From NCBI GenBank assembly GCA_963732825.1, contig CAVTAX010000002.1:1852931-1876930 (forward strand): a stretch of 24,000 nt of DNA. The letters are read 5' to 3'. Positions 1,200 through 22,857 of this stretch are shown here, one piece after another. This DNA comes from an uncultured Actinomycetota bacterium (lineage in GTDB: Bacteria; Actinomycetota; Actinomycetes; Streptomycetales; Streptomycetaceae). Within the stretch, counting starts at the first letter, position 1. Each line of letters opens with the position of its first letter. The notes under the pieces are model-generated. The model ran no database searches. It saw only the letters and a list, made by a program, of their open reading frames with translations, and was not told the DNA's origin. Made by a program: the position numbers and the translations under genes.

Positions 1200-2072
1200 T
1201 CAGCGGGCGGCGCGGGCCCGGGCGATGCGGTCGGCGGACTCCTCCGGGGACAGCGCGAGCGCCCGCAGCCGGCCGAACGCCTCACGGTGCGCGGCCACCT
1301 CCGGCGACTCCTCCACGAACCCGCAGCGCGTCAGCCCCTCCACGTGCACGACGTCCAGTTCCTCCAGTCCCGCGAAGGTCAGCACGTCGAACGATCCGGC
1401 CTGCCCGGGGTGCGGGGGCGCCTCGTCGGGCAGCACCTGGAGACGGATGTTGGGCCGCCGGCCGAGCGCCAGCAGGCGGGCGAGCTGATCACGCATCACC
1501 CCTTCGCCCTCCCGGACCGCACCGGTGCGCAGCGCGGCCTCGGCCAGCACCACGCTCAGCCGCAGCGGCCGCTCGCGGGTGAGCACCGACTGCCGGGCCA
1601 GCCGGGTCTGCACCAGCGCGTCCGGATCGGCGCCGGCCTCCCCCGGCACGGCGGCGACCGCCTCACGCGCGTAGTCGGCGGTCTGCAGCAGCGCCGGCAC
1701 CGACGCGGTTCGCCAGGCCAGCACCTCCGTGGCGTCCGCCTCCAGGCTGATCAGGTCCTCCTGCTCCGGCGGGATCAGCCCGCGGTAGGGCCACCACCAG
1801 CCGCGCTGCGTGCCCTCGCGGGCCATCTCCAGCAGTGCGGCCCGCAGCGGCTCGCGCACGTCCCGCCCGATCCCGGCGTACAGGTCCAGCAACGTCCGAA
1901 CGTCGGCGGATTTCGCGGCGCTCCTGGCGTTCTCCAGCCGCGACAGCTTCGAGAACGTGAAGGCCCCGCCGGACCGATCCGAGACCTCCTCCAGCGTCAA
2001 CTCGCCCCGCAGCGACCGCAGTCGCGCGCCCAGCCGGCGCCTCCTCACCGTGCCCGCCCCGCCACCCGTCAT
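1200..2072 (-). CDS. XRE-family helix-turn-helix transcriptional regulator, WhiJ/Scr1-like (C-terminal DUF5753-type domain)
   Basis: Part of track ORF 1200..2318. The internal ATG (rc of 2070-2072) is preceded by GAGGGGG. The N-terminus RRRRLGARLRSLRGELTLEEVSDRSGGAFTFSKLSRLENA is an XRE HTH. The remainder (LLQTADYAREA..., VLPDEA...GSFDVL) resembles the Streptomyces WhiJ-type family. The 82 codons upstream of this ATG are Arg/Gly/Pro-rich and look non-coding. Confidence 0.8.
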   Translation of the reverse strand: MTGGGAGTVRRRRLGARLRSLRGELTLEEVSDRSGGAFTFSKLSRLENARSAAKSADVRTLLDLYAGIGRDVREPLRAALLEMAREGTQRGWWWPYRGLIPPEQEDLISLEADATEVLAWRTASVPALLQTADYAREAVAAVPGEAGADPDALVQTRLARQSVLTRERPLRLSVVLAEAALRTGAVREGEGVMRDQLARLLALGRRPNIRLQVLPDEAPPHPGQAGSFDVLTFAGLEELDVVHVEGLTRCGFVEESPEVAAHREAFGRLRALALSPEESADRIARARAAR

Positions 2073-2417
2073 CCCGTCCGCCCCCTCACGTCCCGGCCCC
2101 CGCCCCAGGCCCACCCCGGAACGTAAGGCTGCTCCAGCAACTTCCCCACGGCCAGCGAGCGTACCGGCCCGCGTCCCCGCACGGCGCCCGAGCACTGGCC
2201 AAGGCCGTGGGAGAGCGGTGTGCGGCCGCCGGGAGGCACCGGCCGGGCGGGCGCCGGTCCGGCCGCCGGAGAGCGCGGAGCCCCGGCGGGCGCGGCGCCA
2301 CGGGGCGCACCAGGGCACGCGGACGCCCCCGCCCGCACTCCGCCGGTACGGCTGACGGCTGTACGGCGGGCGGGGGTGCGGGGCGGGCGGCTGTACGGCG
2401 GTGGCGGGGGACCGGGG

Positions 2418-3359
2418 TCAGCGGGCGATGCCCAGGGCGATGCCGTCGAGGATGTCGTGCTCGGAGACGACGACCTCGGTGGCACCGCAGCGGTCCATCA
2501 CGGCTTCGAGGACGAGCGCGCCGGCGGTGACGACGTCGACGCGGCCGGGGTGGATGACGGGGCTGGCGGCGCGTTCCGCGTGGGTGGAGGCCAGCAGGCG
2601 GGCGGCGATCTCCCGGACGGCCTCACGGGAGACGCGGGAGTGGTGGACGCGGTCGGAGTCGTAGCTCTCCAGGCCCAGGGCGATCGCCGCGATCGTGGTG
2701 ACCGAGCCGGCCAGGCCGACCAGGGTGCGGGCCGACTCCAGCGGGACGCGGGCGGCCGCCTCGTCGAGTGCGGCGGCGATGTCGGAGCGGATCGCGGCGG
2801 CCGCCTGCCCGGTGGGCGGGTCGACGACCTCGCCGTCGCGCGCCAGGTGCCGTTCCGTCAGGCGCACGCAGCCGATGTCCACGCTGTGCCCGGCCCGCAC
2901 GGCGGTGTCACCGACCACGAACTCCGTCGAGCCGCCGCCGATGTCGACCACCAGGAACGGCCGCGGCCAGTCCGCGCCGGTCAGCCCGGCGGTGGCACCG
3001 GTGAACGACAGCCGCGCCTCCTCCTCGCCGGTGACGACCTCGGGCGTGACGCCGAGGATGTCCCGGACGCCACGGGTGAAGACCTCCCGGTTGGCGGCGT
3101 CCCGGGTGGCGGAGGTGGCGACGAACCGCACGCGTTCCGCGCCGTGGCCCTCGATGACCCGGGCGTACTCACGGCAGGCGGTGAAGGTGCGCTCCAGCGC
3201 CTCCGGGGCGAGTTCACCGGTGCGGTCCACGCCCTGGCCGAGCCGGACGATCGTCATCCGCCGGTCGAGGACGGACAGTTCACCGGTGTCCGGGTCGGCG
3301 TCGGCGACCAGCAGGCGGATGGAGTTGGTGCCGCAGTCCACGGCCGCGACGCGGGTCAC
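2418..3359 (-). CDS. ppx: Exopolyphosphatase, Ppx/GppA family
   Basis: Track ORF 2418..3512. The conserved part begins at VTRVAAVDCGTNSIRLLVAD (ASKHA phosphate-1 motif), followed by FLVVDIGGGSTEFV (phosphate-2). The GTG at rc 3357-3359 overlaps the upstream gene stop as GTGA, suggesting translational coupling. Confidence 0.9.
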   Translation of the reverse strand: MTRVAAVDCGTNSIRLLVADADPDTGELSVLDRRMTIVRLGQGVDRTGELAPEALERTFTACREYARVIEGHGAERVRFVATSATRDAANREVFTRGVRDILGVTPEVVTGEEEARLSFTGATAGLTGADWPRPFLVVDIGGGSTEFVVGDTAVRAGHSVDIGCVRLTERHLARDGEVVDPPTGQAAAAIRSDIAAALDEAAARVPLESARTLVGLAGSVTTIAAIALGLESYDSDRVHHSRVSREAVREIAARLLASTHAERAASPVIHPGRVDVVTAGALVLEAVMDRCGATEVVVSEHDILDGIALGIAR

Positions 3360-3904
3360 GCCTCCACCTCCCCGGTCCCGCCGGCCGTGCCGCACGTCCC
3401 GGCGCACGGGCCCTTGCGCCACCACCGCGGCAGCGCCGCGATCGCCTCGTCGCCCAGGGGGTTGACCCCTGGCCCTGCCGCCAGCGCGTGTCCCACCAGC
3501 ACGTGCAGGCACTTGACCCGGTCGGGCATGCCACCGGCGCTGGGGAACCCCTCCAGCACCTCGATCGCGTCACGCCGCGCGACGTAGTCCTCGTGCGCGG
3601 CGCGATAAGCCGCCGCCAGTTCCGGATCGGTGCCCAGCCGCTCCGTCATCTCCCGCATCATCCCGCCCGCCTCCAGCGTCCCGATCGCGGACGCCGCCCG
3701 CGGGCACGTCAGGTAGTACAACGTCGGGAACGGCGACCCGTCCTCCAACCGCGGCGCCGTCTCCACCACGTCCGGCAACCCGCACGGACACCGGTGCGCC
3801 ACCGCCCGCAACCCCCTGGGCACCCGCCCCAGCTGCGCCCCGACCGCAGCGACGTCATCCTCAGTGGGCGATACGGAAGCCGTGACCGGCGGTGGAGTGT
3901 CCAT
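3356..3904 (-). CDS. DUF501 domain protein (Rv1025-like)
   Basis: Track ORF 3356..4057, using the internal ATG (rc 3902-3904). The sequence ...HRCPCGLPDVVETAPRLEDGSPFPTLYYLTCPRA...VKCLHVLVGHALA is typical of the DUF501 family found between ftsB and ppx in actinobacteria. The upstream 51 codons are Arg/Trp-rich and non-coding-like. Confidence 0.85.
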   Translation of the reverse strand: MDTPPPVTASVSPTEDDVAAVGAQLGRVPRGLRAVAHRCPCGLPDVVETAPRLEDGSPFPTLYYLTCPRAASAIGTLEAGGMMREMTERLGTDPELAAAYRAAHEDYVARRDAIEVLEGFPSAGGMPDRVKCLHVLVGHALAAGPGVNPLGDEAIAALPRWWRKGPCAGTCGTAGGTGEVEA

Positions 3905-3989
3905 CCCCCCATCCTCCCAGACCCCCACCCCAACCCAGCAGCGGGAAGCCCCGCGAGGAGCGCGGACGACAACGCGCCGCAGCCACCAC

Positions 3990-4018
3990 AAGGGGCGCGA
4001 GGAACCGCGCGACCAACC
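3990..4018 (+). repeat. Copy A of a short interspersed GC-rich repeat (core AAGGGGCGCGAGGAACCGCGCGACCAACC)
   Basis: The first 28 nt are near-identical to 10179-10206 (26/28). Copy C at 19333-19360 is more diverged (about 21 of those 28 positions). All three copies are intergenic and in the same orientation. The core contains a GCGCG..CGCGC mini-hairpin. Confidence 0.7.
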
Positions 4019-4091
4019 AGAACGGCGAAGCCCCCGCGAACGGACAGCGAGCCGCACCCCAGCAGGCGGACCGGCGCACCCGTCCGGAGGA

Positions 4092-4553
4092 CTACCGCGC
4101 GTCGGTGGCGTTCACCCCGTCCCAAAGATTGTCGTACCAAGGCCGGTCCGCTCCGGAGGCCATCGCCCCGGAAGCCGTTCCCGCCACGGCGGAGCCGCCC
4201 GGCATGACGTACCCCGTCTCGCCCGGCAGGACGTAGTGCAGTTGGACGCGGGCGCGGGCCCGCACGTAGGAGGGGTCGGCCCAGCGGGCCTTCTGCTCCT
4301 TCAGCTGCTCGACGCGTCGCCGCGCCTGCTCGGCCTGGCGGCGTTGCTGGGCGATCTGCGACTGCTGGGCGATGTACTGCCGGGTGGGGTAGGCCAGGGC
4401 CACCACGAGCGCGCAGACGGTGAGGGCGAGGACGGCGGCGCGGCCGGTGAGCCGGGCGCGCCGGGTTCGGCCGGCGGCCTGGTTGACCCGGGCCTGCGCC
4501 TGCCGGCCCAGGGCCCTGAGCCGGACCGCGGTGGGGAACCGGTCGGGCGCCAC
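4092..4553 (-). CDS. divIC: Septum formation initiator, FtsB/DivIC family
   Basis: Track ORF 4092..4586. It has a single N-terminal TM segment (AAVLALTVCALVVALAYP) followed by a coiled coil (IAQQSQIAQQRRQAEQARRRVEQLKEQKARW) and ...PSYVRARARVQLHYVLPGE. I prefer the GTG at rc 4551-4553, which is preceded by GGAGGGAG. The start could instead be the TTG at 4586. Confidence 0.8.
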   Translation of the reverse strand: MAPDRFPTAVRLRALGRQAQARVNQAAGRTRRARLTGRAAVLALTVCALVVALAYPTRQYIAQQSQIAQQRRQAEQARRRVEQLKEQKARWADPSYVRARARVQLHYVLPGETGYVMPGGSAVAGTASGAMASGADRPWYDNLWDGVNATDAR

Positions 4554-4591
4554 GTCGTCTCCCTCCGTCCGGGACCGCACCCTCAAGCGGT

Positions 4592-4682: not shown

Positions 4683-6002
<1,320 letters not shown>

Positions 6003-6189: not shown

Positions 6190-7052
<863 letters not shown>

Positions 7053-7412
7053 TCGTCTCCCGCCGGCCGGCGGCAGGACTCGGCGTTCCTGGCAGGCGGG
7101 GCTCGCGGTGGCGAGCGGGGACGACCTTAAGCACACGCCCCGGCGGCCCGACAAGCCGCGGCAGGACGTCCCGCACCGCCGGCCCCACCCCGCCGCGGGC
7201 CGCCGGGAACTGACGAACGCGCAGGTGGGAACGGGCCTAAGTGATCGAATCCGACCTTTGTCATGGATCATGCCGAGAGAGGTATGTCACAGCATCACCG
7301 GCACCGGGCCGGGCGTCGCGCCGCCCGGCCGGGCCTCCCGCCGGAGGCCCGGACGCGACGGAGCCCCCCCGGCCGGCCGGGGGGGCTCCTGGGCGCGGCG
7401 GGCGCCGTGGCC

Positions 7413-8339
7413 TCAGTCGAGGAGAAGGCTCTGGCCGGGGTGGATGACCCCCGGATCACCGCCGAGGACCGAGGCGTTCGCGTGGTACAGCGCCTGCCAC
7501 CCGCCCGGAACGTGGTGTTCGGCGGCGATCCGGTACAGATCCTCCCCGGGGCGGACGATATGGACGGGTTCACCGCCTTCGGAGGGTGCGCCCACTTCCG
7601 GCCGGGCGTGCGCGCCGGGGCCGGGCCGGGCCGGGGGCGTGGTGGCGTCGCCGCCGGAGGGGCCGGGGCGGGCGTGCCGTCCGGCGCCGGCGGAGGTGCC
7701 GCCGGACGCGGGGGGCGCGGACGCCGAGGGGTCGCCGGAGGGCGCGGAGGCGGAGGGGGCCGGGCTGCCGGTCGGCGCCCCGGTGGCGCCGGCCGGGGGC
7801 GGGGTGGCGGAGGCGGGCGCGGTCGGGGCGCCGGGGGCCGGGGCGGACGTGGCGGTGCCGCCGTCGGGGCCGCCGAGCAGGCCGCCGAGGATCCCGCCGA
7901 GCAGTCCGGTGCCGGGCGCCGGGGTGGCGGTGGTGGCGGGGGACGGCGACGCGGTGGCGTCGGCGGCGGTGAGGCCGGCGGTGTTGGCGCAGGCACCCCA
8001 GTACTGCGGCCCGTCGTCGGCCAGGATGCGCCGGGCGACGGTGATCTGCTGCTCGGGGGTGGCGCGTTCCGGGGTGTCGGTGTAGTCGGTGCCGCCGTTC
8101 GCGAGCCACGCGCCCTGGGTCAGGCCGAGGCCGCCGGCGAACCCGTCCGCGACGGCCGTCCAGTCCCCGCCGGTCTCGCAGGCGGCGACCCGGTCCCAGA
8201 CCGAGGCGGTCGCGGCGTGCGCGGTGCCCGCCGAGGCGATCAGCGGCAGGGCGATGCCGGCCCCGGTGGCGCCGACGGTCACCACGAATCTCGGTGCCTG
8301 GCGCGGGCGGCGGTGGCCGCCGGTCCCGGACGTGCGCAT
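7413..8339 (-). CDS. rpfC: Second Rpf-domain plus LysM secreted protein with a long Pro/Ala/Gly/Ser/Thr-rich linker
   Basis: It has a signal peptide, an Rpf-like domain (WDRVAACETGGDW...GGLGLTQGAW...QITVARRILADDGPQYWGACA), a ~150-aa low-complexity linker, and a C-terminal LysM (HIVRPGEDLYRIAAEH...VIHPGQSLLL). The symbol rests only on my memory of S. coelicolor synteny (eno-rpfA-rpfC-P450). Confidence 0.75.
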   Translation of the reverse strand: MRTSGTGGHRRPRQAPRFVVTVGATGAGIALPLIASAGTAHAATASVWDRVAACETGGDWTAVADGFAGGLGLTQGAWLANGGTDYTDTPERATPEQQITVARRILADDGPQYWGACANTAGLTAADATASPSPATTATPAPGTGLLGGILGGLLGGPDGGTATSAPAPGAPTAPASATPPPAGATGAPTGSPAPSASAPSGDPSASAPPASGGTSAGAGRHARPGPSGGDATTPPARPGPGAHARPEVGAPSEGGEPVHIVRPGEDLYRIAAEHHVPGGWQALYHANASVLGGDPGVIHPGQSLLLD

Positions 8340-8473
8340 GGCGTGCCTCTCGTAGACGGCTGGTTGGCGGGGAGCGTAGCCCGCCCCGGGCCGCCGTAAC
8401 AGCCTGATGTAGCAAGGATCACGCCGCGATCACGTATCTGACGCGACGTCAGGCGCGGCCTGTGGCACGGCGG

Positions 8474-9691
8474 TCAGCGCAACGTCACCGGCAGTTCCCG
8501 CAGGCCCCGCATGATCAGACCGCCGCGCCGGCGCAAGTCGGCCGGATCCGCCGCCAGTCGCAGGCCGGGGAAACGGGTCAGAAGCCGTTCGAAGGCGATC
8601 CGGCCCTCCATGCGGGCCAGCGGCGCACCGACGCAGTAGTGGATGCCGTGGCCGAAACCCAGGTGCGGGTTGTCGCGCCGGGCGAGGTCGAGGCGGTCGG
8701 CGTCCGGCCCGAAACGCGCCGGGTCACGGTCGGCGGCGGCCAGCACCACCAGCACCGGTTCACCGGCCCGGATCCGCTGCCCGCCGATCTCCAGGGCCGC
8801 GGTGGCGTACCGCCAGGTGGCCAGTTCCACCGGCCCGTCCCAGCGCAGCAGTTCCTCCACGGCCACCCCGAGCGCCTCCCGGTCGCCGCGTTCCACCGCG
8901 CCGCGCACCAGGGCCAGCCGCAGCGGGTCGCGCAGCAGCGCGTACATCCCGTTGCCCACCAGGTTGATGGTGGTCTCGAAGCCGGCGAACAGCAGGATGA
9001 ACGCCATCGCCGCCGCCTCGTTCTCCGTGAGGTGCTCGCCGTGGTCGCAGGCGCGGATGAGGCCGGAGATGAGGTCGTCGCCGAGGTCGGCGCGCTTGCG
9101 GTGGATGAGTTCCAGCAGGTAGCCGCGCATCCTCTTCACCGCGCGCGCGACCCCGCCGCGCGGTCCGCCGCGGTGCCGGATCATCGCGCCGGCCCAGTCG
9201 CGGAAGTCGTCCTGGTCGGCGGTCGGCACGCCCAGCAGGTCGCAGATCGCGTAGATGGGCAGCGGGAAGGCGAACTCGTGGATGAGTTCGGCCTCCTGAC
9301 GGCCCGCGAAGGCGCCGATGAGCCGGTCGGCGAGTGCCACCACGCGTGGTTCGAACGCGGCCACCCGGCGCGGGGTGAACGCGGCCGAGACCAGGCGGCG
9401 CAGCCGGGTGTGGTCGGGCGGGTCGATGTTGAGCAGATGCGTCATCAGATCGGCGCCGCGTTCCCCGGGGATGCCGGTGCGGCCCTTGGCGTGCGCGCCC
9501 TCGCCGTGGTGCGCCGGGTTCTTGCTCAGCCGCGGATCGGCCAGCGCCGCCCGGGCGTCGGCGTACCGGGTCACCAGCCAGGCGTCCACCCCGCTGGGCA
9601 GCGTGGTGCGGCGCACCGGCGCGTGCTCGCGCAGCCACGCGTACGCCGGATAGGGGTCGGCGGCGAACTCCCACGTGAACAACTCGGGCAT
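8474..9691 (-). CDS. Cytochrome P450 monooxygenase (CYP107-like)
   Basis: This is the C-terminal 405 codons of the 862-aa track ORF 8474..11062, taking the ATG at rc 9689-9691 (MPELFTWEFAADPYPAYAWLREHAPV). It carries the I-helix AGFETT, an ExxR motif (VEELLR) and the heme loop FGHGIHYCVGAPLA. An alternative GTG lies 24 nt upstream. The remaining upstream 450+ codons are Arg/Pro/Gly junk read through other genes. Confidence 0.9.
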   Translation of the reverse strand: MPELFTWEFAADPYPAYAWLREHAPVRRTTLPSGVDAWLVTRYADARAALADPRLSKNPAHHGEGAHAKGRTGIPGERGADLMTHLLNIDPPDHTRLRRLVSAAFTPRRVAAFEPRVVALADRLIGAFAGRQEAELIHEFAFPLPIYAICDLLGVPTADQDDFRDWAGAMIRHRGGPRGGVARAVKRMRGYLLELIHRKRADLGDDLISGLIRACDHGEHLTENEAAAMAFILLFAGFETTINLVGNGMYALLRDPLRLALVRGAVERGDREALGVAVEELLRWDGPVELATWRYATAALEIGGQRIRAGEPVLVVLAAADRDPARFGPDADRLDLARRDNPHLGFGHGIHYCVGAPLARMEGRIAFERLLTRFPGLRLAADPADLRRRGGLIMRGLRELPVTLR

Positions 9692-9881
9692 CGGGGGCGG
9701 GGAGGTGTCGTGCACCCCACGACGGTACCGCCGCCCGCTCCCCACCGGCCGGCAACCGCGGACGGGGTCCGCCGCGTCTCCCCCTATGATCGGGCCGTTC
9801 CGCCCAAGGGCCGCCCACGCCCTGCCGGTTGGGGCCCGGTGCATCCACCGCCACCCGGCGACCAGAGCGAAGGAGTAGACG

Positions 9882-10103
9882 GTGCGCGAGTACATCGAGC
9901 GCGAGGAGATCATCGAGCGCGGCGGTTTCTTCGGTGGTGAGGAGATCATCGAGCGCGAAACGATCATCGAGGAGCGCGGCGGCTTCTTCGGCGGCGAGGA
10001 GATCATCGAACGCGAAACGATCATCGAGGAGCGCGGCGGCTTCTTCGGCGGCGAGGAGATCATCGAGACCGAAACGGTCATCGAACGCGACTCCTTCTTC
10101 TGA
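9882..10103 (+). CDS. Small hyper-acidic tandem-repeat protein (73 aa), function unknown
   Basis: The GTG at 9882 is preceded by AAGGAG (9870-9875) at 6-nt spacing. Third codon positions are almost all G/C. The product is MREYIER-[EEIIER GGFFGG]-[EEIIERETIIEER GGFFGG]x2-EEIIETETVIERDSFF. The repeat copies differ only by synonymous substitutions. A strong hairpin follows 10 nt after the stop. Confidence 0.7.
   Translation: MREYIEREEIIERGGFFGGEEIIERETIIEERGGFFGGEEIIERETIIEERGGFFGGEEIIETETVIERDSFF
9903..10090 (+). repeat. In-frame tandem DNA repeat (57-bp unit) inside the small ORF
   Basis: The full units at 9939-9995 and 9996-10052 are 56/57 identical, with the single difference G9953 versus A10010 (gag/gaa, synonymous). 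A 36-bp partial unit lies at 9903-9938 and a diverged unit runs from 10053. Confidence 0.95.
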
Positions 10104-10113
10104 CCCCAGCCAC

Positions 10114-10147
10114 CCGCGGCCCGTCCCTGTCGGGGGACGGGCCGCGG
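10114..10147 (+). terminator. Perfect 14-bp stem / 6-nt loop hairpin after the small repeat ORF
   Basis: CCGCGGCCCGTCCC (10114-10127) is the reverse complement of GGGACGGGCCGCGG (10134-10147). Confidence 0.6.
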
Positions 10148-10150
10148 TGC

Positions 10151-10207
10151 GTTCCCCGCGCCCTGAGGCCGAGCCCCGAAGGGGCGCGGGGAACCGCGCG
10201 ACCAGCC
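10151..10207 (+). repeat. Copy B of the interspersed repeat, embedded in a 13-bp stem hairpin
   Basis: GTTCCCCGCGCCC (10151-10163) pairs with GGGCGCGGGGAAC (10182-10194). The core AAGGGGCGCGGGGAACCGCGCGACCAGCC (10179-10207) matches copies A and C. It lies between the convergent small ORF and nfi, so it may also act as a bidirectional terminator. Confidence 0.7.
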
Positions 10208-10284
10208 CGCACGAACCGGCGGCCGGCCACCGCGCAGAACCCCAGGCGGCCCGAGCCCCCGGAACGAACCCGCGGAGCGAACCC

Positions 10285-10983
10285 TCAGCCGGCGGCGGCC
10301 AACACGTCCCGGCTCAACCGGTCCGCCGCCCGGGTCGTCTCCGGCAGGCGATAGTCCCTCGCCGCGCGGAGCGTCAGCGCGCAGGCCGTGTCGAGGCCGA
10401 TGCCGTGACCGGTGGAGACGAAGACCGGTTTGACCCCGTCCCGCGTGCGCAGCACCCGTCCCACCACCTCGCCGTCGTCGACGAGGCCGGCGGACGCGCC
10501 GCGCCCCGCACCGAGCGCCGCCGCGTCCCAGGTGCCGGTGAACGGCGTCTTGGCCACGCCCGCGGTCGGCAGGCCGGTGAGGACGCCGAGGTGGCAGGCC
10601 AGGCCGAAGCGGCGCGGGTGCGCCAGCCCCTGTCCGTCGCACAGCATCACGTCGGGGACGGCGGTCAGCTTCTCCAGCGCCTCGATCAGCACGGGCAGTT
10701 CCCGGAACGCGAACAGCCCCGGTATATAGGGGAAGGCGGCGCGTCCGACGGCGGTGGCGCGTTCGAGGACCTCCAGGGTGCCGGCGTCGAGCACGACGAC
10801 CGCGGCGGCCACCAGGCCGTCGGTGCCGCCGCCGTCCCCGGCGTAGGCGACGTCGAGCCCGGCGAGCGTGTCGGGTGCGGCGGGTCCGGGACCGGTGTGG
10901 TCGGCGAGCGGCCGCAGGCGGTCCTGGATCGCGACGGCCTCGTCGGCGTCGGCGGGCCAGGTGTGCGGGATGTCGATGCGCAT
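10285..10983 (-). CDS. nfi: Endonuclease V (deoxyinosine 3' endonuclease)
   Basis: Track ORF 10285..11064, using the internal ATG (rc 10981-10983). The motifs are typical of endonuclease V: AGLDVAY..., FPYIPGLFAFRELPVLIEALEKL, DVMLCDGQGLAHPRRFGLACHLGV, KPVFVSTGH. Confidence 0.9.
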   Translation of the reverse strand: MRIDIPHTWPADADEAVAIQDRLRPLADHTGPGPAAPDTLAGLDVAYAGDGGGTDGLVAAAVVVLDAGTLEVLERATAVGRAAFPYIPGLFAFRELPVLIEALEKLTAVPDVMLCDGQGLAHPRRFGLACHLGVLTGLPTAGVAKTPFTGTWDAAALGAGRGASAGLVDDGEVVGRVLRTRDGVKPVFVSTGHGIGLDTACALTLRAARDYRLPETTRAADRLSRDVLAAAG

Positions 10984-11012
10984 GGGCACCAAGGATGGCA
11001 GGGCCGGGCGGG

Positions 11013-11528
11013 TCAGCCGAGCGGGATGTCGCCGGTGCCCGTGTAGGGCCCGCCGGGGGCACAACCGGTGGTGACCAGCAGGTCGACGGCGTCCCGGCCG
11101 GCCACCACCAGCAGTCGCCCGCCGCCGGGCACGTCGCCGTGGGCCACCTGCTCGCCCTCCGTGCCGGTGGTGAACGGGCGCAGCCGGTAGCCGCCCTTCC
11201 GCAGGGCGGCGGCCACCGCCGCGGGGATCCCGGGGCCGAGGGGGGACATCGAGCTGACGGTCACCGCGGCCGTCTGCCGCTGCTCGCCCCGCGTGGCGCA
11301 GGCGGCCAGGGGCGTTCCGTCGCCGGGGCCGACGCCGTTGGAGATGCCGTTGGTCTCCTTCGGCCAGTGCACGGCGGTGACCGCCCTGCGCAGGGAGGCG
11401 ATGTCGAGCCGGGCGACCGCCGCCAGGGAAGCGGGCTGGCCGGGCGGGCCGTGCTGCGCGCCCGAGCAGCCGGCCGCTGCGAGGACCAGAACGGCTGCGG
11501 CGCGGGCCGGTGCACGGTTCGGCGGCAT
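11013..11528 (-). CDS. Putative lipoprotein (paralogue 1)
   Basis: It has a signal peptide with a lipobox (VLVLAAAGC). Third-position GC is high. It shares blocks with the next gene (HWPKE...PLAACATRG / LRPFTTG / LLVTTGCAPG). Confidence 0.75.
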   Translation of the reverse strand: MPPNRAPARAAAVLVLAAAGCSGAQHGPPGQPASLAAVARLDIASLRRAVTAVHWPKETNGISNGVGPGDGTPLAACATRGEQRQTAAVTVSSMSPLGPGIPAAVAAALRKGGYRLRPFTTGTEGEQVAHGDVPGGGRLLVVAGRDAVDLLVTTGCAPGGPYTGTGDIPLG

Positions 11529-13338: not shown

Positions 13339-13992
13339 TCAGCCCGTGACGGACGCCGGCTTGGCGGGGACCGTGGCGGGGTCGAGCCAGTGGGAGGTGG
13401 TGTTGCCGATGGCCAGGCCCTCGGCGTGCCAGGTGCCGTAGCGCGGGTTGACGTCGACGTGCAGGGTGGCGGCCGTGCGGGACAGCTCGGTGTCCACCTG
13501 CTGCTGGCCCTGCGCGGTGTTGAGGTCGGCGCCGATCGCCCGGGCGATGCCGGCCCGCTGGATCTGGCTGCGGAAGAACGTCTGAGTGGGCGCCCCCGGG
13601 GCCACCGCGGCGCGTTCCAGCAGCAGGTCGCGCAGGCCGTCCTTGCCGCCGAAGCGCTGCTCGTCCATCGATACGGCCGTCTCGATCTGGCCCTGCGTGA
13701 CGGTGACGTGGTGGGCGGCGGCGGCCCGGTCCAGTACCCGGTAGCCGACCAGGCTGTCGAGCATCAGCCGGTTGAGCCCGCCGTCGGCGCCGCTCAGCGC
13801 CACCTGCTGCCCGGACGCCGACTGCGCGTGTCGCAGCTGGGTGACCTGGTTCTGCAGTTCGGTGACGGAGATCGTGCTGCCGCCCACGACCGCGGCCGAC
13901 CCCGGGTGCTGGGCGCACGAGGTGATCAGGGGTGCGGCGAGCACGAGGGCTGCGGCGGTCAGGGAGAGGGTGACGGTGCGGCGGCGGACCAT
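13339..13992 (-). CDS. SurA N-terminal-domain-like lipoprotein (putative chaperone)
   Basis: The ATG is preceded by GGGAGG. It has a lipobox (APLITSC). The sequence ...ISVTELQNQV...LNRLMLDSLVGYRVLDRAA...VTVTQGQIE...VDVNPRYG resembles the SurA_N-type lipoproteins found next to mazG in Streptomyces. Confidence 0.75.
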   Translation of the reverse strand: MVRRRTVTLSLTAAALVLAAPLITSCAQHPGSAAVVGGSTISVTELQNQVTQLRHAQSASGQQVALSGADGGLNRLMLDSLVGYRVLDRAAAAHHVTVTQGQIETAVSMDEQRFGGKDGLRDLLLERAAVAPGAPTQTFFRSQIQRAGIARAIGADLNTAQGQQQVDTELSRTAATLHVDVNPRYGTWHAEGLAIGNTTSHWLDPATVPAKPASVTG

Positions 13993-15659: not shown

Positions 15660-18600
15660 CTACAGCACCACGGAGTTCAAGAACTCCGCGGTCCACACGA
15701 GCAGTTCCCGACCGACCACCGGCTTGCCTCCAATGGTGCCGGTGGTCGGTCGCGGTACGAGGACCTGTTTCGTGGCTGCCTTCAGCACGCTGCGCGGATG
15801 CAGCCGCTTGAGCCGCAGCTCCTGCGACTCGCGCAACTCCACCGGGCCGAACCGCACGTTGCCGCCCTGCAGGGTGATGTCGGCGACCCCGGCCCGCCGG
15901 GCCAGCAGCCGCAGCCCCGCCACCAGCAGCAGGTTCTCCACCGGTTCGGGCAACGGGCCGTAGCGGTCGGCCAGTTCGTCGCGCACCGCCTTGATGTCGT
16001 CCTCGGAGTCGACCGAGGCGATGGACCGGTACGCCTGGAGGCGCAGCCGCTCGCCGGGCGCGTAGTCGTGCGGGACGTGCGCGTCGACCGGCAGCTCGAT
16101 CTTGACCTCCAGCGGCGCCTGTTCCACCGCGCCGCCCGATTCAAGCGCCGTCCGGTAGTCGGCCACCGCCGCGCCGACCATCCGCACGTACAGGTCGAAG
16201 CCGACGCCCGCGATGTGCCCGGACTGCTCGCCGCCCAGCAGGTTGCCGGCGCCGCGGATCTCCAGGTCCCTCATCGCCACGTACATGCCCGCGCCCATCT
16301 CGGTGTGCTGCGCGATCGTCGCCAGCCGCTCGTGGGCGGTCTCCGTCAGCGGCTTCTCCGGCGGGTACAGGAAGTAGGCGTAACCGCGCTCGCGGGAGCG
16401 GCCCACCCGGCCGCGCAGCTGGTGCAGCTGACTCAGGCCGAAGACGTCACCGCGTTCTACGATGAGGGTGTTGGCGTTGGCGATGTCGATGCCGGACTCC
16501 ACGATCGTGGTGGAGACCAGCACGTCGAAGCGCTTCTCCCAGAAGTCGACGACCACCTGCTCCAGGGCGTTCTCCCCCATCTGCCCGTGCGCGGTGGCGA
16601 TCCGGGCCTCCGGCACCAGTTCACGCAGCCGCGCCGCCGCCCGGTCGATCGACTCCACCCGGTTGTGGATGTAGAAGACCTGCCCCTCGCGCAGCAGCTC
16701 CCGGCGGATGGCCGCGGCGATCTGCCGGTTCTCGTACGGTCCGACGAACGTCAGCACCGGGTGCCGTTCCTCCGGCGGCGTGGTGATCGTCGACATCTCC
16801 CGGATGCCGGTCACCGCCATCTCCAGGGTGCGCGGGATCGGGGTGGCCGACATCGTCAGCACGTCCACGTTGGCCCGCAGCTTCTTCAGCTGCTCCTTGT
16901 GCTCGACGCCGAAGCGCTGCTCCTCGTCGACGATGACCAGGCCCAGGTTCTTGAACCGCGTCCCCGAGGCGAACAGCCGGTGCGTGCCGATCACGATGTC
17001 GACCGTGCCGTCGAACAGCCCCTCCACCACGACCTTCGCCTCGTGGTCGGTCTGGAACCGCGACAGCGCGCGGACGTTCACCGGGAACTGCCCGTAGCGT
17101 TCGGTGAACGTGCCGAAGTGCTGCTGCACGAGCAGCGTGGTCGGCACCAGCACCGCCACCTGCTTGCCGTCCTGCACCGCCTTGAAGGCGGCGCGCACCG
17201 CGATCTCCGTCTTGCCGTAGCCGACGTCGCCGCAGATCAGCCGGTCCATCGGGACCGACTTCTCCATGTCCTCCTTGACCTCGGCGATCGTGGTCAGCTG
17301 GTCGGCGGTCTCGGTGTAGGGGAACGCGTCCTCCAGCTCCCGCTGCCACGGGGTGTCCGGCGCGAACGCGTGGCCGGGCGCCGCCATCCGCGCCGAGTAC
17401 AGCTTGATCAGGTCGGCGGCGATCTCCTTGACCGCCTTCTTCGCCCGCGCCTTCGTCTTCGTCCAGTCCGCGCCGCCCAGCCGGTGCAGCGTCGGGGCCT
17501 CACCACCGACGTACTTGGTGACCTGCTCCAGCTGGTCGGTCGGCACGAACAGCCGGTCGCCGGGCTGCCCGCGCTTCGCCGGCGCGTACTCCACCAGCAG
17601 GTACTCGCGGGTGGCGCCCTGCACCGTGCGCTGCACCATCTCGACGTACCGGCCCACGCCGTGCTGCTCGTGCACGATGTAGTCGCCCTGCTGGAGGGTG
17701 AGCGGGTCGATGGTCTTGCGGCGCCGCGACGGCATGCGGCCCATGTCCTTGCTCACCGACCGCTGGCCCGACAGGTCGGACTCGGTCAGCACCGCCAGCC
17801 GCAACCCCGGGTGCACGAAGCCGTGCTCCAGCGCCGCGCACGAGACGTGTACCAGCGCCGGTTCCGGTTCGTCCGGCAGACTCGCGTCCAGCCGCGCCGC
17901 GATCCCCTCGCCGCCCAGCACCTCGACGGTGCGCGACGCCGGGCCGTGGCCCTCGGTGAGGTACACCACCTGCCAGCCCTCGGCCAGCCAGCCCTTGGTG
18001 TCCGCCAGCGCCCGCGCGCTGTCGCCCCGGTAGGTCTCCGGCGCCCGCATCCCCAGCACCAGGGTGTCGGCGTCCAGCTCCTGGTCCTGCGCGAACTGGC
18101 TCAGCGACCACCACGGCACACCGGTGTCCTGCGCGTGCGCCCGCACGTCCGCCAGTGCCCACAGGCTGGCCGCCCCCAGGTCGATCGGCGCCTCACCGCC
18201 GCCGGCCGTCGCCGCCCAGGACGCCTCCAGGAACTCCCGGCTGGTCGCCACCAGGTCCGCCGCCCGGGTCCGCACCCGTTCCGGGTCGCAGGCGACGACC
18301 AGCGACCCGGACGGCATGACGTCCATCACCAACTCCATGTCGTCCACCAGCACCGGCGCCAGCGACTCCATGCCCTCCACGGCGATGCCCTCGGCGATCC
18401 GGCCCAGCAGGTCGCCCAGCTCCGGGTGCAGCTTCGCCAGCTCCGCCGCGCGCTCCCGCACCGGGTCCGTCAGCAGCAGCTCCCGGCACGGCGGCGCCCA
18501 CAGCCCGTGCTCGGCGACCTCCAGACTGCGCTGGTCGGCCACCTTGAAGTACCGGATCTCCTCGACGTCGTCGCCCCAGAACTCCACCCGCAGCGGGTGC

Positions 18601-19192
18601 TCCTCGGTCGGGGGAAAACGTCCAGGATGCCGCCGCGCACCGCGAACTCGCCGCGTTTCTCCACCAGTTCGACCCGCGCGTAGGCGGCCGCGGCCAGCGC
18701 CTCCACCACCGCCGGCAGGTCGAAGCTCTCCCCGGTGCGCAACGCCACCGGCTCCAGGTCGCCCAGCCCCTTGACCTGCGGCTGCAGCACGGAACGCACG
18801 GGGGCGACCACCACGGAGACCGGTCCGGCCGCCGGGTCGTCGGCACTCGGGTGCGCGAGGCGCCGCAGCACGGCCAGCCGCCGCCCCACGGTGTCGCTGC
18901 GCGGGCTGAGCCGCTCGTGGGGCAGCGTCTCCCACGCGGGGTACTCCACCACCGCGTCCGGCGGCAGCAACGACCGCAGCGCGGCGGCCAGGTCCTCCGC
19001 CTCCCGCCCCGTCGCCGTCACGGCCAGCACCGGCCGCCCCGCCCGGGCCGCGAGCGCCGCCAGCACGAACGGCCGGGCGCCGGGCGGACCGACCAGGTCC
19101 AGCCACGCCCGGTTCCCGTCCTCCGCGGCCCCGACCGCCTCCCCCAGGGCGGAATCCTTGATCACGACGTCCAGCAGACCGTTGAGGCTCAT
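15660..19192 (-). pseudogene. mfd: Transcription-repair coupling factor Mfd, reading frame broken by a 1-nt deficit in a homopolymer run (or a sequencing error)
   Basis: The N-terminal part is in track ORF 18470..19291, from MSLNGLLDV (ATG rc 19190-19192) to ...EKRGEFAVRGGILDVFP. The canonical continuation PTEEHPLRVEFWGDDVEEIRYFKVADQRS... through the helicase motifs (GDVGYGKTE, DEEQRFGV, LTMSATPIPRT) to the C-terminus is in the other frame (track ORF 15660..19106). The switch occurs at G5 on the plus strand (18610-18614). The total span of 3533 nt is one nt short of a multiple of three. Confidence 0.9.
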
Positions 19193-19495: not shown

Positions 19496-22072
19496 TCAGT
19501 CCGTGGCGATGGCGTTGAGGATGTTCATCCGGGAGGCCCGGAACGCCGGCAGGACGGCTGCCAGGCGGCCGACGATCGCGGCGCCGACGAAGACGACGAC
19601 GATCGTGGACCACGGGATGGACAGCGTGTTGAGACCCTGCGTGGCCAGCACCTTCTGGCCGGAGACGCCCCAGGCGAGGCCCAGGACGACACCGATCACC
19701 GCGCCGAAGAGCGCGATCACGATGGACTCCTTGCGGATCATGCCCCGCATCTGGCGGCGGGACATGCCGATCGCCCGGCTCAGGCCGATCTCCCGGGTGC
19801 GTTCGACCACCGAGAGCGCCAGGGTGTTCACCACGCCGAGGATGGCCACCACGATGGCCAGTGCGAGCAGGCCGTAGATCAGGTTCAGCAGCGAGCTGAT
19901 CTGGCTGCTGAGCTGCTTCTTGTAGTCGGCCTGGTTACGCACGGTGACCTGCGGGTACGGATGCAGGGCGGACTTGAGCGCGCTGTAGACGTGGTTGACG
20001 GCGGCGTGGTCGGAGGCCGCGGCCAGCAGCATGACGTCGCCGGGCATCACGTCGGCCGGCACGTAGCGGGCGACGGTGGAGATGCCGACCAGCATGGCGC
20101 CGTTGTTGAGCGTGCTGTCCTTGGAGGTGATCGCGGACAGCGGCAGGGTGGCGTGCTTGCCGCCCTGGCGGAAGGTGACCGGGATGCGGTCGCCGACCTT
20201 CAGGTGGTACTTGTCCGCCACGTTCCCGTCGACGGTGAAGCCGCCCTGCTGGTAGGCGTTCTCGACGGTGCCGGAGGTCGTCGGGACCCGCAGGTCGGAG
20301 ACGTACGTCGGGTCGGTCGCGTCGAAGGTGCTGCCGAGCTTCTTGCCGTCCGGCAAGGTGAGTTCGACGGGCAGCACCCGGTACTCGGTGACGTGGTCGA
20401 GGCCCTTGGTGTTCTTGACCGCGGAGACGATCTGCGGGGTGAAGGCGCCCACGTTGCTGTTGACGATGAAGTCGGCACCGACGGACTTGTCGATCTCGAC
20501 GTTCGCCGAGGCCACCATGGAGGAGCCGACCACCGACAGGCCGGCGACCAGCGCCAGTCCGATCATCAGAGCGGCAGCGGTGGCGCCGGTGCGGCGCGGG
20601 TTGCGCAGCGCGTTGCGCTGGGCGAGCCGGCCCATCGGGCCGAACGGGCGCAGCAGCACGCTGCCGAGCACCCGGATCACGGCGGCGGCCAGCAGCGGAC
20701 CGGTCACCACGAAGCCGACCAGGGTCAGCACGACGCCGAAGGCCAGCGAGCCGCCGCCGGTGGAGCCGTTGGTGGCCTTGGCCGCACCGACCAGGCAGGC
20801 GACGCCGGCCAGCGTGATGACGCCGCCGACGATGCTGCGGACGGTGATGGACCGGGCGGTCTCGTTGGCGGCGCCGGTCTCGCGCAGCGCGGCCATCGGG
20901 GAGATCTTCCCGGCCCGGCGGGAGGGCAGGTAGGCGGAGACCAGCGTGATGATGATGCCGACCGCGGCGCCCGCCAGCGGGGTGTGCGCCTGGAAGCTGA
21001 ACTCCGAGGTGTCCAGGTGCATCCCGAAGCTGTTCATCAGGCCCATCATGGCCAGCGCGAGGCCCGCGCCGACCGCGATGCCCACGGCCGAGCCGACGAT
21101 GCCGAGCAGCAGTGCCTCGATCATCACCGACCGGTTGACCTGCCGCCGGCTGGAGCCGAGCGCCCGCATCAGGCCGATCTCGCGGGTGCGCTGGGCGACC
21201 AGCATCGAGAAGGTGTTGACGATCAGGAAGATGCCGACCAGCAGGCCGATGCCGGCGAAGGCGAGCATCGCGTACTTGATGACCTTGAGGAAGCTGCCGA
21301 CGCTGTTCTTGGAGTCGGCGGTGGCCTCGGCGCGGGTCTGCAGCTTGTACCGCGGGCCCAGCTTGCTCAGCACGGACGCCTTGAGGCTGTCGTTGCTGCG
21401 GGAGCCGTCACCGTAGACCTCGACCTGGGTGAACAGGCCCGCCTTGCCCAGCAGTTCGCGCTGCGCGGTGGGGGTGTCGAGGAACAGCAGCGTGGCGCCG
21501 GGGTTGGTGCTGCGGAACGTGGCGATGCCGCTGAGCTTGGCGTCGAAGCTGCCGAACGCCGTCATGATCTTGACCGGGTCGCCCAGCCCCATGTGGGTGC
21601 GCTTGGCGGTGTCGGCGTCGAGCATGGCCTCCTGCGGGCCGCGCGGAACGTGCCCGGAGGTGACGGTCAGCGACGGGCGCGGCGAGTCCTGCCAGTTGTC
21701 GGCGATCGTCGGGGCGCCGGAGGTGGAGCTGATGCTCTTGTCGTTGCGCGGGTCGACGACGGTGACGGCCTGCGCCTCGGCATGGCCGTAGACCTTCTTC
21801 ACGCCCGGCAGGGACGCGATGCTGCTGACCAGCGAGTCAGGCATGGTGGCCGCGCGGGCCCCCTCCTGCTGGCTGCCGTTGTCCGCCTTCGGCTGGATGG
21901 TCAGGTCGGCGGCGGTGGAGTCGAAGAGCTTGTCGAACGTGGCGTTGACCGTGTCGGTGAACACGAGCGTCCCGCAGACGAAGCCGACGGACAGCACGAT
22001 GGCGATGGCCGACAGCAGCATGCGGAACTTGTGCGCGAAGAAGTTGCGCAGGGATGCCTTCCAGACGGTCAC
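19496..22072 (-). CDS. ABC transporter permease, FtsX/MacB-type (two FtsX modules, 858 aa)
   Basis: It starts MTVWKASLRNFFAHKFRMLLSAIAIVLSVGFV. Duplicated FtsX-type segments are present (VQRTREIGLMRALGSSRRQV and VERTREIGLSRAIGMSRRQM). The GTG start overlaps the ATPase stop as GTGA. Confidence 0.9.
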   Translation of the reverse strand: MTVWKASLRNFFAHKFRMLLSAIAIVLSVGFVCGTLVFTDTVNATFDKLFDSTAADLTIQPKADNGSQQEGARAATMPDSLVSSIASLPGVKKVYGHAEAQAVTVVDPRNDKSISSTSGAPTIADNWQDSPRPSLTVTSGHVPRGPQEAMLDADTAKRTHMGLGDPVKIMTAFGSFDAKLSGIATFRSTNPGATLLFLDTPTAQRELLGKAGLFTQVEVYGDGSRSNDSLKASVLSKLGPRYKLQTRAEATADSKNSVGSFLKVIKYAMLAFAGIGLLVGIFLIVNTFSMLVAQRTREIGLMRALGSSRRQVNRSVMIEALLLGIVGSAVGIAVGAGLALAMMGLMNSFGMHLDTSEFSFQAHTPLAGAAVGIIITLVSAYLPSRRAGKISPMAALRETGAANETARSITVRSIVGGVITLAGVACLVGAAKATNGSTGGGSLAFGVVLTLVGFVVTGPLLAAAVIRVLGSVLLRPFGPMGRLAQRNALRNPRRTGATAAALMIGLALVAGLSVVGSSMVASANVEIDKSVGADFIVNSNVGAFTPQIVSAVKNTKGLDHVTEYRVLPVELTLPDGKKLGSTFDATDPTYVSDLRVPTTSGTVENAYQQGGFTVDGNVADKYHLKVGDRIPVTFRQGGKHATLPLSAITSKDSTLNNGAMLVGISTVARYVPADVMPGDVMLLAAASDHAAVNHVYSALKSALHPYPQVTVRNQADYKKQLSSQISSLLNLIYGLLALAIVVAILGVVNTLALSVVERTREIGLSRAIGMSRRQMRGMIRKESIVIALFGAVIGVVLGLAWGVSGQKVLATQGLNTLSIPWSTIVVVFVGAAIVGRLAAVLPAFRASRMNILNAIATD

Positions 22073-22857
22073 GCGGTCCTCCCGCGCGCGTCGAAGGTGG
22101 CCATGCGCTCCAGGACCTTCTCGGCCGTCGGCTCGGCCATGTCGTCGACGATCCGGCCGTCGGCGAGGTAGAGCACGCGGTCCGCGTACGAGGCGGCGAC
22201 CGGGTCGTGGGTGACCATGACGATGGTCTGGCCGAGGTCGTCGACCGAGCGGCGCAGGAAGCCCAGGATCTCGGCGCCGGCGCGCGAGTCGAGGTTACCG
22301 GTGGGCTCGTCGCCGAAGATGATCTCCGGGCGGGCGGCGAGCGCGCGGGCGACCGCGACACGCTGCTGCTGGCCGCCGGACAGCTGGGTGGGCCGGTGCT
22401 TGAGGCGCGCGCTGAGACCGACGGTGTCGATGACGGTGCGCAGCCACTCCGGGTCGGGCTTGCGGCCGTCGATGTCCATCGGGAGGGTGATGTTCTCGAT
22501 GGCGTTGAGCGTCGGCAGCAGGTTGAACGCCTGGAAGATGAAGCCGATGTTGCGGCGCAGCTTGGTGAGCTGCTTGTCCTTCAGGCCGGTGATCTCGGTC
22601 TCGCCGACCCAGATCTGCCCGGAGGTGACGGTGTCGAGACCGGCCAGGCAGTGCATGAGGGTGGACTTGCCGGAGCCCGAGGGGCCCATGATGGCGGTGA
22701 ACCGCCCGCGGTGGATGTCCACGTCGACGGCGTCGAGCGCCACCACGCGGGTCTCCTCGGTGGCTCCGTAGGACTTGGTCACCGCGCGGCCGCGTGCGGC
22801 AACGGCCGAGACGCCTCCGCTGCCGTCCGTGCCGGGAAGTGTCTCAGCCGTGGTCAC
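22069..22857 (-). CDS. ABC transporter ATP-binding protein (MacB/LolD-like)
   Basis: It carries Walker A (GPSGSGKST), a Q-loop, the signature LSGGQQQRVAVARAL, Walker B (IIFGDEPTGNLD) and an H-loop (VMVTHD). I prefer the GTG at rc 22855-22857, preceded by AGGAG (rc 22866-22870). The track ORF extends to the ATG at 22911. Confidence 0.9.
   Translation of the reverse strand: MTTAETLPGTDGSGGVSAVAARGRAVTKSYGATEETRVVALDAVDVDIHRGRFTAIMGPSGSGKSTLMHCLAGLDTVTSGQIWVGETEITGLKDKQLTKLRRNIGFIFQAFNLLPTLNAIENITLPMDIDGRKPDPEWLRTVIDTVGLSARLKHRPTQLSGGQQQRVAVARALAARPEIIFGDEPTGNLDSRAGAEILGFLRRSVDDLGQTIVMVTHDPVAASYADRVLYLADGRIVDDMAEPTAEKVLERMATFDARGRTA

Follow-up and report, generated by a model that had tools for sequence, protein, structure and literature searches.

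In this work we analysed a stretch of DNA of 24,000 nt (hereafter the window) from an uncultured Actinomycetota bacterium of the Streptomycetaceae, in which an open reading frame (ORF) of 73 codons lies between a cytochrome P450 gene and nfi, the gene for endonuclease V. This ORF is almost certainly a genuine translated small gene. A sequence-only reading of the window had already taken it for one, and that view is now strongly supported by conservation, by in-frame variation of the repeat number and by purifying selection. Our comparisons mark its products as a new, rare and essentially unannotated small-protein family of the Streptomycetaceae, the novelty being at the level of the protein family. 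The overall reading that we favour, with a probability of about 40%, is that of an autonomous inserted single-gene unit that encodes an acidic β-sheet repeat protein. The coding elements are the following.

9882–10103, + strand: coding sequence of the small repeat protein, GTG start, TGA stop at 10101–10103, 73 amino acids (aa), MREYIEREEIIERGGFFGGEEIIERETIIEERGGFFGGEEIIERETIIEERGGFFGGEEIIETETVIERDSFF
9882–9938, 9939–9995, 9996–10052 and 10053–10100, + strand: the repeat units of the 73-aa ORF
9870–9875, + strand: Shine–Dalgarno sequence AAGGAG, 6 nt 5′ of the GTG

The signals first read from the letters of the window are mostly as described: AAGGAG stands 6 nt before the GTG at 9882, the quoted peptide matches the ORF translation exactly, and third codon positions are G/C-rich. 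The GC content at codon positions 1, 2 and 3 is 0.61/0.34/0.88 in the ORF, 0.78/0.50/0.93 in the P450 gene and 0.79/0.56/0.92 in nfi, and throughout the family (the window and the homologous loci) the value at the third position (GC3) is 0.88–0.95, with a low value at the second. Because of an in-frame TAG at 9876–9878, upstream of the GTG, the N-terminus cannot be longer. Tandem Repeats Finder detects a repeat of 57-bp period with 3.4 copies, 89% matches and a score of 293. The tandem repeat described earlier is therefore real, but its earlier parsing into modules is better replaced by four units of about 19 aa, each made of an acidic strand plus GFFG(G). The differences between modules that had been quoted are also correct (GAG at 9951–9953 versus GAA at 10008–10010, and three GGT versus GGC in the first GGFFGG). 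However, the argument drawn from them, that only synonymous changes are seen and hence that the peptide is selected, is circular because the modules were defined by their identical peptides, and moreover it relies on just four differences. The real evidence for selection on the peptide comes from the sequences of other genomes, not from the copies inside the window.

The searches brought up 19 homologues, which come from Streptantibioticus, from Kitasatospora, from certain Streptomyces and from metagenomes. A protein search gave five relatives; a scan of one genome per species gave 12 loci (Streptomyces sp., Streptantibioticus, Kitasatospora and two soil metagenome-assembled genomes); two further loci, L025 and L026, were added via the closest homologue of the P450, which UniRef labels Streptantibioticus silvisoli in these strains. 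In a collection of 5.8 billion protein clusters only six belong to the family; they are drawn from metagenomes and raw-read assemblies, with JGI, ENA and Logan as sources and none from NCBI or UniProt. The start is conserved in position, a GTG, ATG or TTG codon followed by R-E (M/V/L-R-E), and the window and nine other loci have an in-frame stop two to three codons 5′ of it. The C-terminus is mostly ...ERDFF, with ...RDSFF in the window, ...ERGGFF in L025, L026 and the metagenomic protein P0007, and ...EDNFF, ...ERDRW and ...RRDWF as other variants. Length varies from 36 to 76 aa, that is from two to four units, and in the alignment the differences are always whole codons or whole units. For 15 pairs within one genomic context, the ratio of nonsynonymous to synonymous substitution rates (dN/dS, Nei–Gojobori, NG86) is 0.03–0.42, and substitutions at codon positions 1:2:3 stand at 100:35:157 when summed over these 15 non-independent pairs; replacements are often I/V, E/D or F/L. 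The sequence-only reading could not tell whether the ORF is conserved; the homologue search, the in-frame changes of repeat number and the dN/dS values indicate that it is, and that it is under purifying selection in this frame. In metagenomes, neither a peptide-pattern scan nor a degenerate DNA pattern, GGNTTYTTYGGNGGNGARGARATHRT, gave further members, all eight of the eight DNA hits being unrelated ORFs, and no paralogue was found in the window or at any of the loci. P0007 is encoded at 150–260 of a 690-bp ENA metagenome contig (L029) by a complete two-unit gene of 36 aa that has a CTATGATC box, a ribosome-binding site and a terminator hairpin; this may be a true minimal allele, or else a product of short-read assembly in which the 57-bp repeats were collapsed.

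These data also bear on the idea that the ORF is not a gene at all, but a chance frame produced in 73%-GC DNA by slippage of a 57-bp repeat, or a by-product of a DNA or RNA repeat that is itself functional. Other frames of this region do hold long spurious ORFs, gene-calling pipelines leave the ORF unannotated, and units 2 and 3, which differ at only one of 57 nt, are by their sequence a very recent duplication. Slippage is nevertheless hard to reconcile with the conservation of frame, start and stop across genera, with dN/dS well below 1, with a ranking of substitutions by codon position of 3>1>2, and with indels that are all in frame. As to a functional RNA, the predicted leader of about 90 nt has no excess structure (z = +0.88), and no Rfam model matches at its gathering threshold anywhere in the window, or at E ≤ 1 within 9680–10300. 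We consider this explanation scarcely credible.

The family is essentially invisible to current annotation, because family searches, cluster sources and exact look-ups were all negative. Pfam gave no match at 0.01 for the ORF product or for a 14-member alignment (best 0.073), NCBIfam no match for the ORF product, PHROGs a best value of 0.031, which is not significant, PADLOC no match, and a sequence profile search of the PDB nothing at E ≤ 10. A profile search of 1.84 billion representative proteins returned four family members and one protein with a PX domain (P0008, discussed below), and nothing else; the profile matches P0006 and P0009–P0011 were set aside as unrelated low-complexity repeats. 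Exact look-up of 22 family sequences (from the window and the genome loci, with V-start and M-start forms and including L025/L026) showed that they are absent from a collection of 15 billion proteins. Among the copies looked up from RefSeq genomes none has a protein record, no member carries an NCBI or UniProt name, and a literature search for GGFFGG gave nothing relevant. At L025/L026 (2570–2797, − strand) the contig index of two NCBI assemblies lists a called gene of 75 aa, the M-start protein of which is absent from the 15-billion-protein collection. The earlier statement that the product has no recognisable domain and no signal peptide agrees with these searches: there is no match to a curated family and no signal peptide or hydrophobic segment, and the product is, on these features, cytoplasmic.

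The protein of the window (about 8.5 kDa) contains 22 Glu and one Asp versus eight Arg, which gives a net charge of −15 and an isoelectric point of 4.17; most members carry a net charge of −11 to −15, and the two shortest one of −7. The composition of the family is E 29%, R 15%, G 14%, I+V 19% and F 11%, with Tyr at 1.9% (mostly in the N-terminal strand), Trp at 0.2% and His at 0.1%. Ala, Cys and Lys do not occur in about 1250 family residues, and the absence of Ala from these sequences is striking for a high-GC actinomycete. In each of the four units a strand of 12–13 residues is followed by GFFG(G/R). The first strand is formed by the N-terminal MREYIEREEIIER, the FF at the C-terminus represents a shortened GFFG, and the last linker is longer in some lineages (GFLGGLLGG, PGLFDGLFGGG). 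Each strand reads as a quasi-palindrome of residue types, EEIIERETIIEE (EEIIE-R-E-TIIEE), with the unit consensus E-E-I/V-I/V-E-R-E-x-I/V-I/V-E-R. AlphaFold2, run on the window protein with a six-sequence alignment, places strands at residues 2–13, 20–31, 39–50 and 58–69, with a mean predicted local distance difference test (pLDDT) of 71.7 and a predicted template modelling score (pTM) of 0.53; with the family member P0002 as the target the same four-strand layout is obtained (pLDDT 61.8, pTM 0.42). Both models agree with the fold that the sequence-only reading had suggested, II/EE strands joined by Gly-Phe turns, and we give even odds to a predicted β-meander of four strands with GGFFGG turns.

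The following elements flank the coding sequence.

9784–9791, + strand: −10-like box CTATGATC, with TATGAT at 9785–9790, about 91 nt 5′ of the start codon
10114–10127 / 10134–10147, + strand: GC-rich hairpin with a perfect 14-bp stem and a 6-nt loop, beginning 10 nt after the TGA, no U-tract
10151–10163 / 10182–10194, no strand: second perfect hairpin, of 13 bp, in the interval that separates the small gene from the convergent nfi

Upstream conservation across three contexts is limited to two blocks, (C/T)TATGATC, 91–125 nt before the start, and the ribosome-binding site, which in the homologues is GAGGAG, GAGGAAG or GGGGAG at the same distance from the start. In 10 loci from these three contexts ATGATC never varies and the T before it hardly does. 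In Kitasatospora-type loci the corresponding position is taken by TATCGT or TAGGGT, which lie within a conserved GTGCGTTA..GTCAC block. Hexamers of the form TAnnnT are typical of −10 elements of the housekeeping sigma factor in Streptomyces, and TATGAT, TATCGT and TAGGGT all fit this form. No recognisable −35 element was seen, and a scan with the σ70 consensus gave no site.

Downstream, the perfect 14-bp hairpin reported earlier is confirmed, and the 110-nt hairpin region folds at −75.7 kcal/mol (z = −5.9 versus shuffled sequences). A simple terminator scan was silent because neither hairpin has a T-run; hairpin terminators that lack a U-tract are common in high-GC actinomycetes. We read the 14-bp hairpin as the putative terminator of the small gene, while the 13-bp hairpin may terminate nfi or act in both directions. 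Comparably strong post-stop hairpins, unrelated in sequence, occur in L008, L011, L014, L016 and L025 (z from −3.2 to −6.2); that of L013 has a 15-bp stem with z = −1.1, and weaker hairpins are found in L004, L005, L007 and L009. As judged from these elements (TAnnnT box, ribosome-binding site, ORF and terminator-like hairpin), the gene is an autonomous unit in most loci.

The position of this unit in the chromosome is not conserved. In the window it lies among the following features.

8474–9691, − strand: cytochrome P450 (PF00067, E 8e-24; below every NCBIfam equivalog cut-off), flanking context
10285–11064, − strand: endonuclease V, nfi (PF04493, E 7e-67; NF008629, E 2e-63), convergent with the small gene
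9692–10284, no strand: segment that separates the nfi stop from the P450 start and is missing at this junction in related genomes

An all-against-all blastn comparison separates the loci into seven unrelated contexts: P450/nfi; metallo-β-lactamase-RMMBL/AIM24; GDSL lipase/Mut7-C; CobW-S18/PolX-like; serpin; DsbA; and ABC permease/ATP-synt_B. The P450 adjoins the ORF only in the clade formed by the window, L007, L008, L025 and L026, and the six other contexts lack a P450. When the neighbours in the window were used in tblastn, the order rpf–P450–ORF–nfi–mazG was recovered, among the first 16 loci, only in L007 and L008, and L025/L026 have it likewise. The P450 itself is, by its distribution, a core gene of the Streptomycetaceae: more than 2,200 proteins match it at E ≤ 1e-100, the top 120 (Streptomyces and Kitasatospora) are 78–100% identical, and its identity to the P450s of over 100 genomes from these two genera is 78–82%. 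In ICBB 8177, S. parmotrematis, S. silvisoli, S. rubrisoli, K. humi and NPDC020096 the P450 is on another contig than the small gene, and in the genomes inspected (ICBB 8177, S. silvisoli and K. humi) no small ORF stands beside the orthologous P450. In genomes that carry the ORF, the P450 may instead follow mazG and one short gene on the opposite strand, without the small ORF. No family motif was found in the orthologous P450 loci L027, L028, L030 and L031. Since the gene occupies seven contexts and the orthologous P450 loci lack the ORF, its adjacency to the P450 is incidental, and the small gene is very probably functionally independent of the P450. The question raised by the sequence-only reading, whether the ORF always neighbours this P450, is therefore answered in the negative, as this is one context of seven.

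The P450 gene belongs to a conserved array of co-directional genes, mazG-(nfi)-P450-rpf-(rpf)-eno, the arrangement of which suggests co-transcription. The gap between nfi and the P450 is 9 bp in L027 (Streptomyces sp. ICBB 8177; array at 2296–4254) and 23 bp in L031 (S. silvisoli RB6PN23; array at 1791–3757), and in L028 (2009–4266) mazG overlaps the P450 start. Because the junction is of 9–23 bp or overlapping elsewhere, we read the segment of about 590 bp at 9692–10284 as an antisense insertion into a tightly packed array. The spacer of 190 bp between the ORF start and the P450 ATG was correctly given before, with the ATG itself to be moved from 9692 to 9691. The divergent promoter region that had been thought to be shared with the P450 is a by-product of the insertion rather than a conserved arrangement. 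The segment shows no convincing terminal repeats (the best direct repeat is 21 nt long, 81% identical, in 73%-GC DNA), and, in the search for features of a transposable element or miniature inverted-repeat transposable element, the unit was found to have no transposase. No tblastn match was obtained in plasmids or phages, which is weak evidence given that low-complexity sequence was filtered. The interval from the second hairpin to the nfi stop (10196–10284) contains imperfect direct repeats, with a 13-bp period in 2.5 copies at 10252–10284 and a pair of 27-nt repeats (10196–10222 / 10249–10275) at 74% identity. In another context, at L009 (3258–5156) and also at L010, L012 and L015, the small gene is directly 3′, on the same strand, of genes for a CobW/COG0523-like GTPase and an S18 paralogue. 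This pair is typical of zinc-starvation (Zur) regulons; membership of such a regulon was considered and dropped, being supported by this one context only.

The model that we propose is thus that of a promoter–ORF–terminator unit that would have landed in different chromosomal places in different lineages and, in the lineage of the window, would have been inserted antisense between nfi and the core P450. There, co-transcription of the array would be broken by the cassette with its two hairpins, in which case a new promoter for the P450 would be required within 9692–9790. In the protein, the strands would pair into an antiparallel β-meander. Because the strands are palindromic in residue type, the Ile/Val doublets would line up on the two faces as stripes with Glu/Arg ladders at their sides, and a sheet with open edges and no buried core would be expected to self-associate or to bind cations or basic partners. 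The high negative net charge, −11 to −15, would gate this assembly or binding, in response to pH or metal ions. A self-assembling or cation-gated scaffold is the function that we would guess first, but that it is the actual one is doubtful.

Several observations weigh against this model or parts of it. The AlphaFold alignments comprise six to seven sequences and the models are of low to moderate confidence; furthermore the two runs are not independent, because their alignments largely overlap. Foldseek retrieves only generic β-sheets from the PDB (best E 0.42), and the II doublets, which recur about every six residues, are not classically amphipathic for either a helix or a strand. The promoter and the transcription start are placed by conservation alone. 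The genome scan used two fixed peptide patterns, so that the observed rarity is a lower bound on the distribution of the family. Finally, some of the neighbouring genes point elsewhere: nfi, the Mut7-C RNase domain, the metallo-β-lactamase-RMMBL protein, the PolX-like HHH_8+PHP protein and ScoMcrA-SRA all relate to nucleic acids, and the CobW/S18 neighbourhood may hint by analogy at a metal (zinc) link, in one context only and without statistical support.

The main rival of the scaffold mechanism, to which the nucleic-acid neighbours lend anecdotal support, is that the product is an acidic decoy or regulator, for instance a nucleic-acid mimic, which binds a basic partner (for example a nuclease, a polymerase or a ribosomal protein) and either inhibits or chaperones it. 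The strong negative charge carried on 36–76 residues, with the low isoelectric point of the window protein, speaks for such a decoy. Nevertheless, no single neighbour is conserved and the enrichment in nucleic-acid genes is anecdotal, without statistical support; there is no similarity to a solved DNA mimic, PADLOC and PHROGs give no match, and no plasmid or phage copy was found. On these sequence data we regard a decoy function as unlikely. Less likely again is a precursor role, in which unlinked proteases would cleave the product at its GFFG linkers and so set free several acidic peptides of 12–13 residues, or Phe-rich peptides, that act as signals or metabolites. The two to four nearly identical units with a conserved Gly-Phe motif between them, a repeat number that depends on the lineage, and a C-terminus that ends within the linker motif (FF, or GGFF in L025) would all suit a precursor of this kind. 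Yet none of the seven contexts has a peptidase, a transporter or a maturation enzyme as a conserved neighbour, and there is neither a signal peptide nor a good match to a double-glycine leader. Strands and linkers are both under purifying selection, with no variable core between constant sites, and AlphaFold puts the units into one folded sheet, which makes this an improbable explanation.

More improbable still is the weak proposal made at the outset by the sequence-only reading, that the ORF encodes a multi-core precursor of a ribosomally synthesized and post-translationally modified peptide (RiPP), with repeated cores that the neighbouring P450 would cross-link or oxidise. In its favour, the peptide is a repeat with aromatic residues, and the P450 is divergently adjacent in the window, L007, L008, L025 and L026, so that the locus does resemble those of biarylitides (BytA/BytO), cittilins and tryptorubin in having a small ORF with aromatic residues beside a P450 in an actinomycete. 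In contrast with such P450-tailored RiPPs, the adjacency is not conserved here, given the six contexts without any P450 and the four orthologous P450 loci without the ORF; the P450 is a core gene embedded in an operon, and it scores 42.5 bits versus a cut-off of 525 bits with ApyO (NF050147), the RiPP P450 model; and the aromatic residues of these predicted folded proteins of 36–76 aa are nearly all Phe, with few Tyr, Trp or His that could be cross-linked. We reject the RiPP-precursor idea because the adjacency is not conserved, the P450 is of the wrong type and the residue chemistry is wrong; as a conserved association, it is refuted by synteny.

Other assignments were considered and discarded. 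Double-glycine leaders have hydrophobic residues at −4, −7 and −12 before the GG; as a leader of the type found in bacteriocins and in substrates of peptidase-containing ABC transporters (PCAT), the sequence is out of register, position −4 being a Glu in MREYIEREEIIERGG, and no ABC exporter with a C39 peptidase is present among the flanking genes annotated, for which part of the flanking ORFs was scanned. Hydrophilins are defined by more than 6% Gly together with very high hydrophilicity; the window protein has 16% Gly but a grand average of hydropathy of only −0.48, because Ile and Phe make up 30% of it, and a hydrophilin-like or late embryogenesis abundant (LEA)-like nature was not retained, there being no LEA, GsiB or CsbD match in Pfam. 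A Pup-like or HbYX-type tail and a mimic of the ClpP IGF loop were also considered and dropped.

In the 24-kb window the small ORF is the sole + strand gene among the ORFs supported by GC3. The other features are given below; those marked "by eye" are named by eye or by analogy with genes called in the related loci, and all except rpf passed the GC3 filter, as did nfi, rpf being assigned by Pfam like the P450.

2418–3512, − strand: ORF of 364 aa, unscanned
4092–4586, − strand: ORF of 164 aa, unscanned
4683–5969, − strand: enolase-like (by eye)
6190–6834, − strand: rpf-like (by eye)
7413–8339, − strand: rpf
− strand: mazG
13339–13992, − strand: SurA_N-like (by eye)
15660–19106, − strand: large mfd-like ORF (by eye)
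19496–22072, − strand: likely ABC permease (by eye)
22069–22911, − strand: likely ABC ATPase (by eye)
23554–23958, − strand: ORF of 134 aa, unscanned

A cyclic-di-AMP (ydaO-type) riboswitch precedes rpfA in S. coelicolor; no gathering-score match to it was found in the window, including 6835–7412 and 8340–8473 upstream of the rpf-like genes. The synteny mazG–P450–rpf–rpf–eno indicates that the P450 of the window is probably of the SCO3099/CYP107U1 type, a developmental (bld) P450 gene described previously (PMC6430224).

The closest likenesses of the family are analogies, as far as sequence and prediction allow, and not memberships. Designed ionic β-sheet peptides include EAK16/RADA16, Glu-rich tapes of the P11 type and MAX1 hairpins. 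The family shares with them a small alphabet, blocks of Glu/Arg and β-branched residues and antiparallel pairing, and a charge-gated assembly would be expected; it differs in being encoded by a natural gene, in having hydrophobic doublets rather than a strict alternation, GFFG turns and a net charge of about −15, and in being known from sequence and model alone. The GFFG, GLFG and GFLGGLLGG linkers between charged spacers recall the GLFG/FG repeats of nucleoporins, but here the spacers are short and predicted to be strands instead of disordered, there are only one to three linkers, the protein is bacterial and cytoplasmic, and there is no sign of homology. The sole Pfam signals, Plasmodium Ag332 (PF04671) and B. 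subtilis YqaI (PF09466), have in common with the family strings of the form EE-hydrophobic-hydrophobic-E; with E values of 0.07–2.4, far below the gathering scores, this likeness is compositional only.

The PX-domain protein P0008 shares the repeat grammar of the family. It is a protein of 359 aa from a Logan assembly, probably eukaryotic, with an N-terminal PX domain (PF00787, E 1.4e-10), and it matches the profile of the actinobacterial family with E 2.7e-7 over four stretches. Its repeats read GFFG[TS]EEVVEDVR.D.FGNREVREEVVD[KR]DMFGR, with the grammar GFFG-(T/S)-EEVVE...FG-x-REVREEVVD-x-D-MFG, and it ends in ...DDRW, to be compared with ...ERDRW and ...RRDWF in the family; it differs in being much longer and in its PX domain. 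The resemblance between these sequences may reflect either homology or convergence.

In conclusion, the unit inserted at 9692–10284 provides a clean case of a conserved bacterial small protein missed by current annotation, and its analysis removes a tempting false lead, as genome mining would otherwise take a small repeat ORF beside a P450 for a RiPP cluster. On a bolder view, which we think unlikely to hold in full, the family would be one of natural "designer-like" mini-proteins, built from about eight residue types and forming charge-gated cross-β assemblies or condensates in the cytoplasm of actinomycetes, encoded by a gene that spreads as a cassette and with a grammar maybe reused in a eukaryotic PX-domain protein. 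With its restricted alphabet, palindromic strands and FG-like turns, the family offers a tractable natural model for the control of β-sheet assembly by charge.

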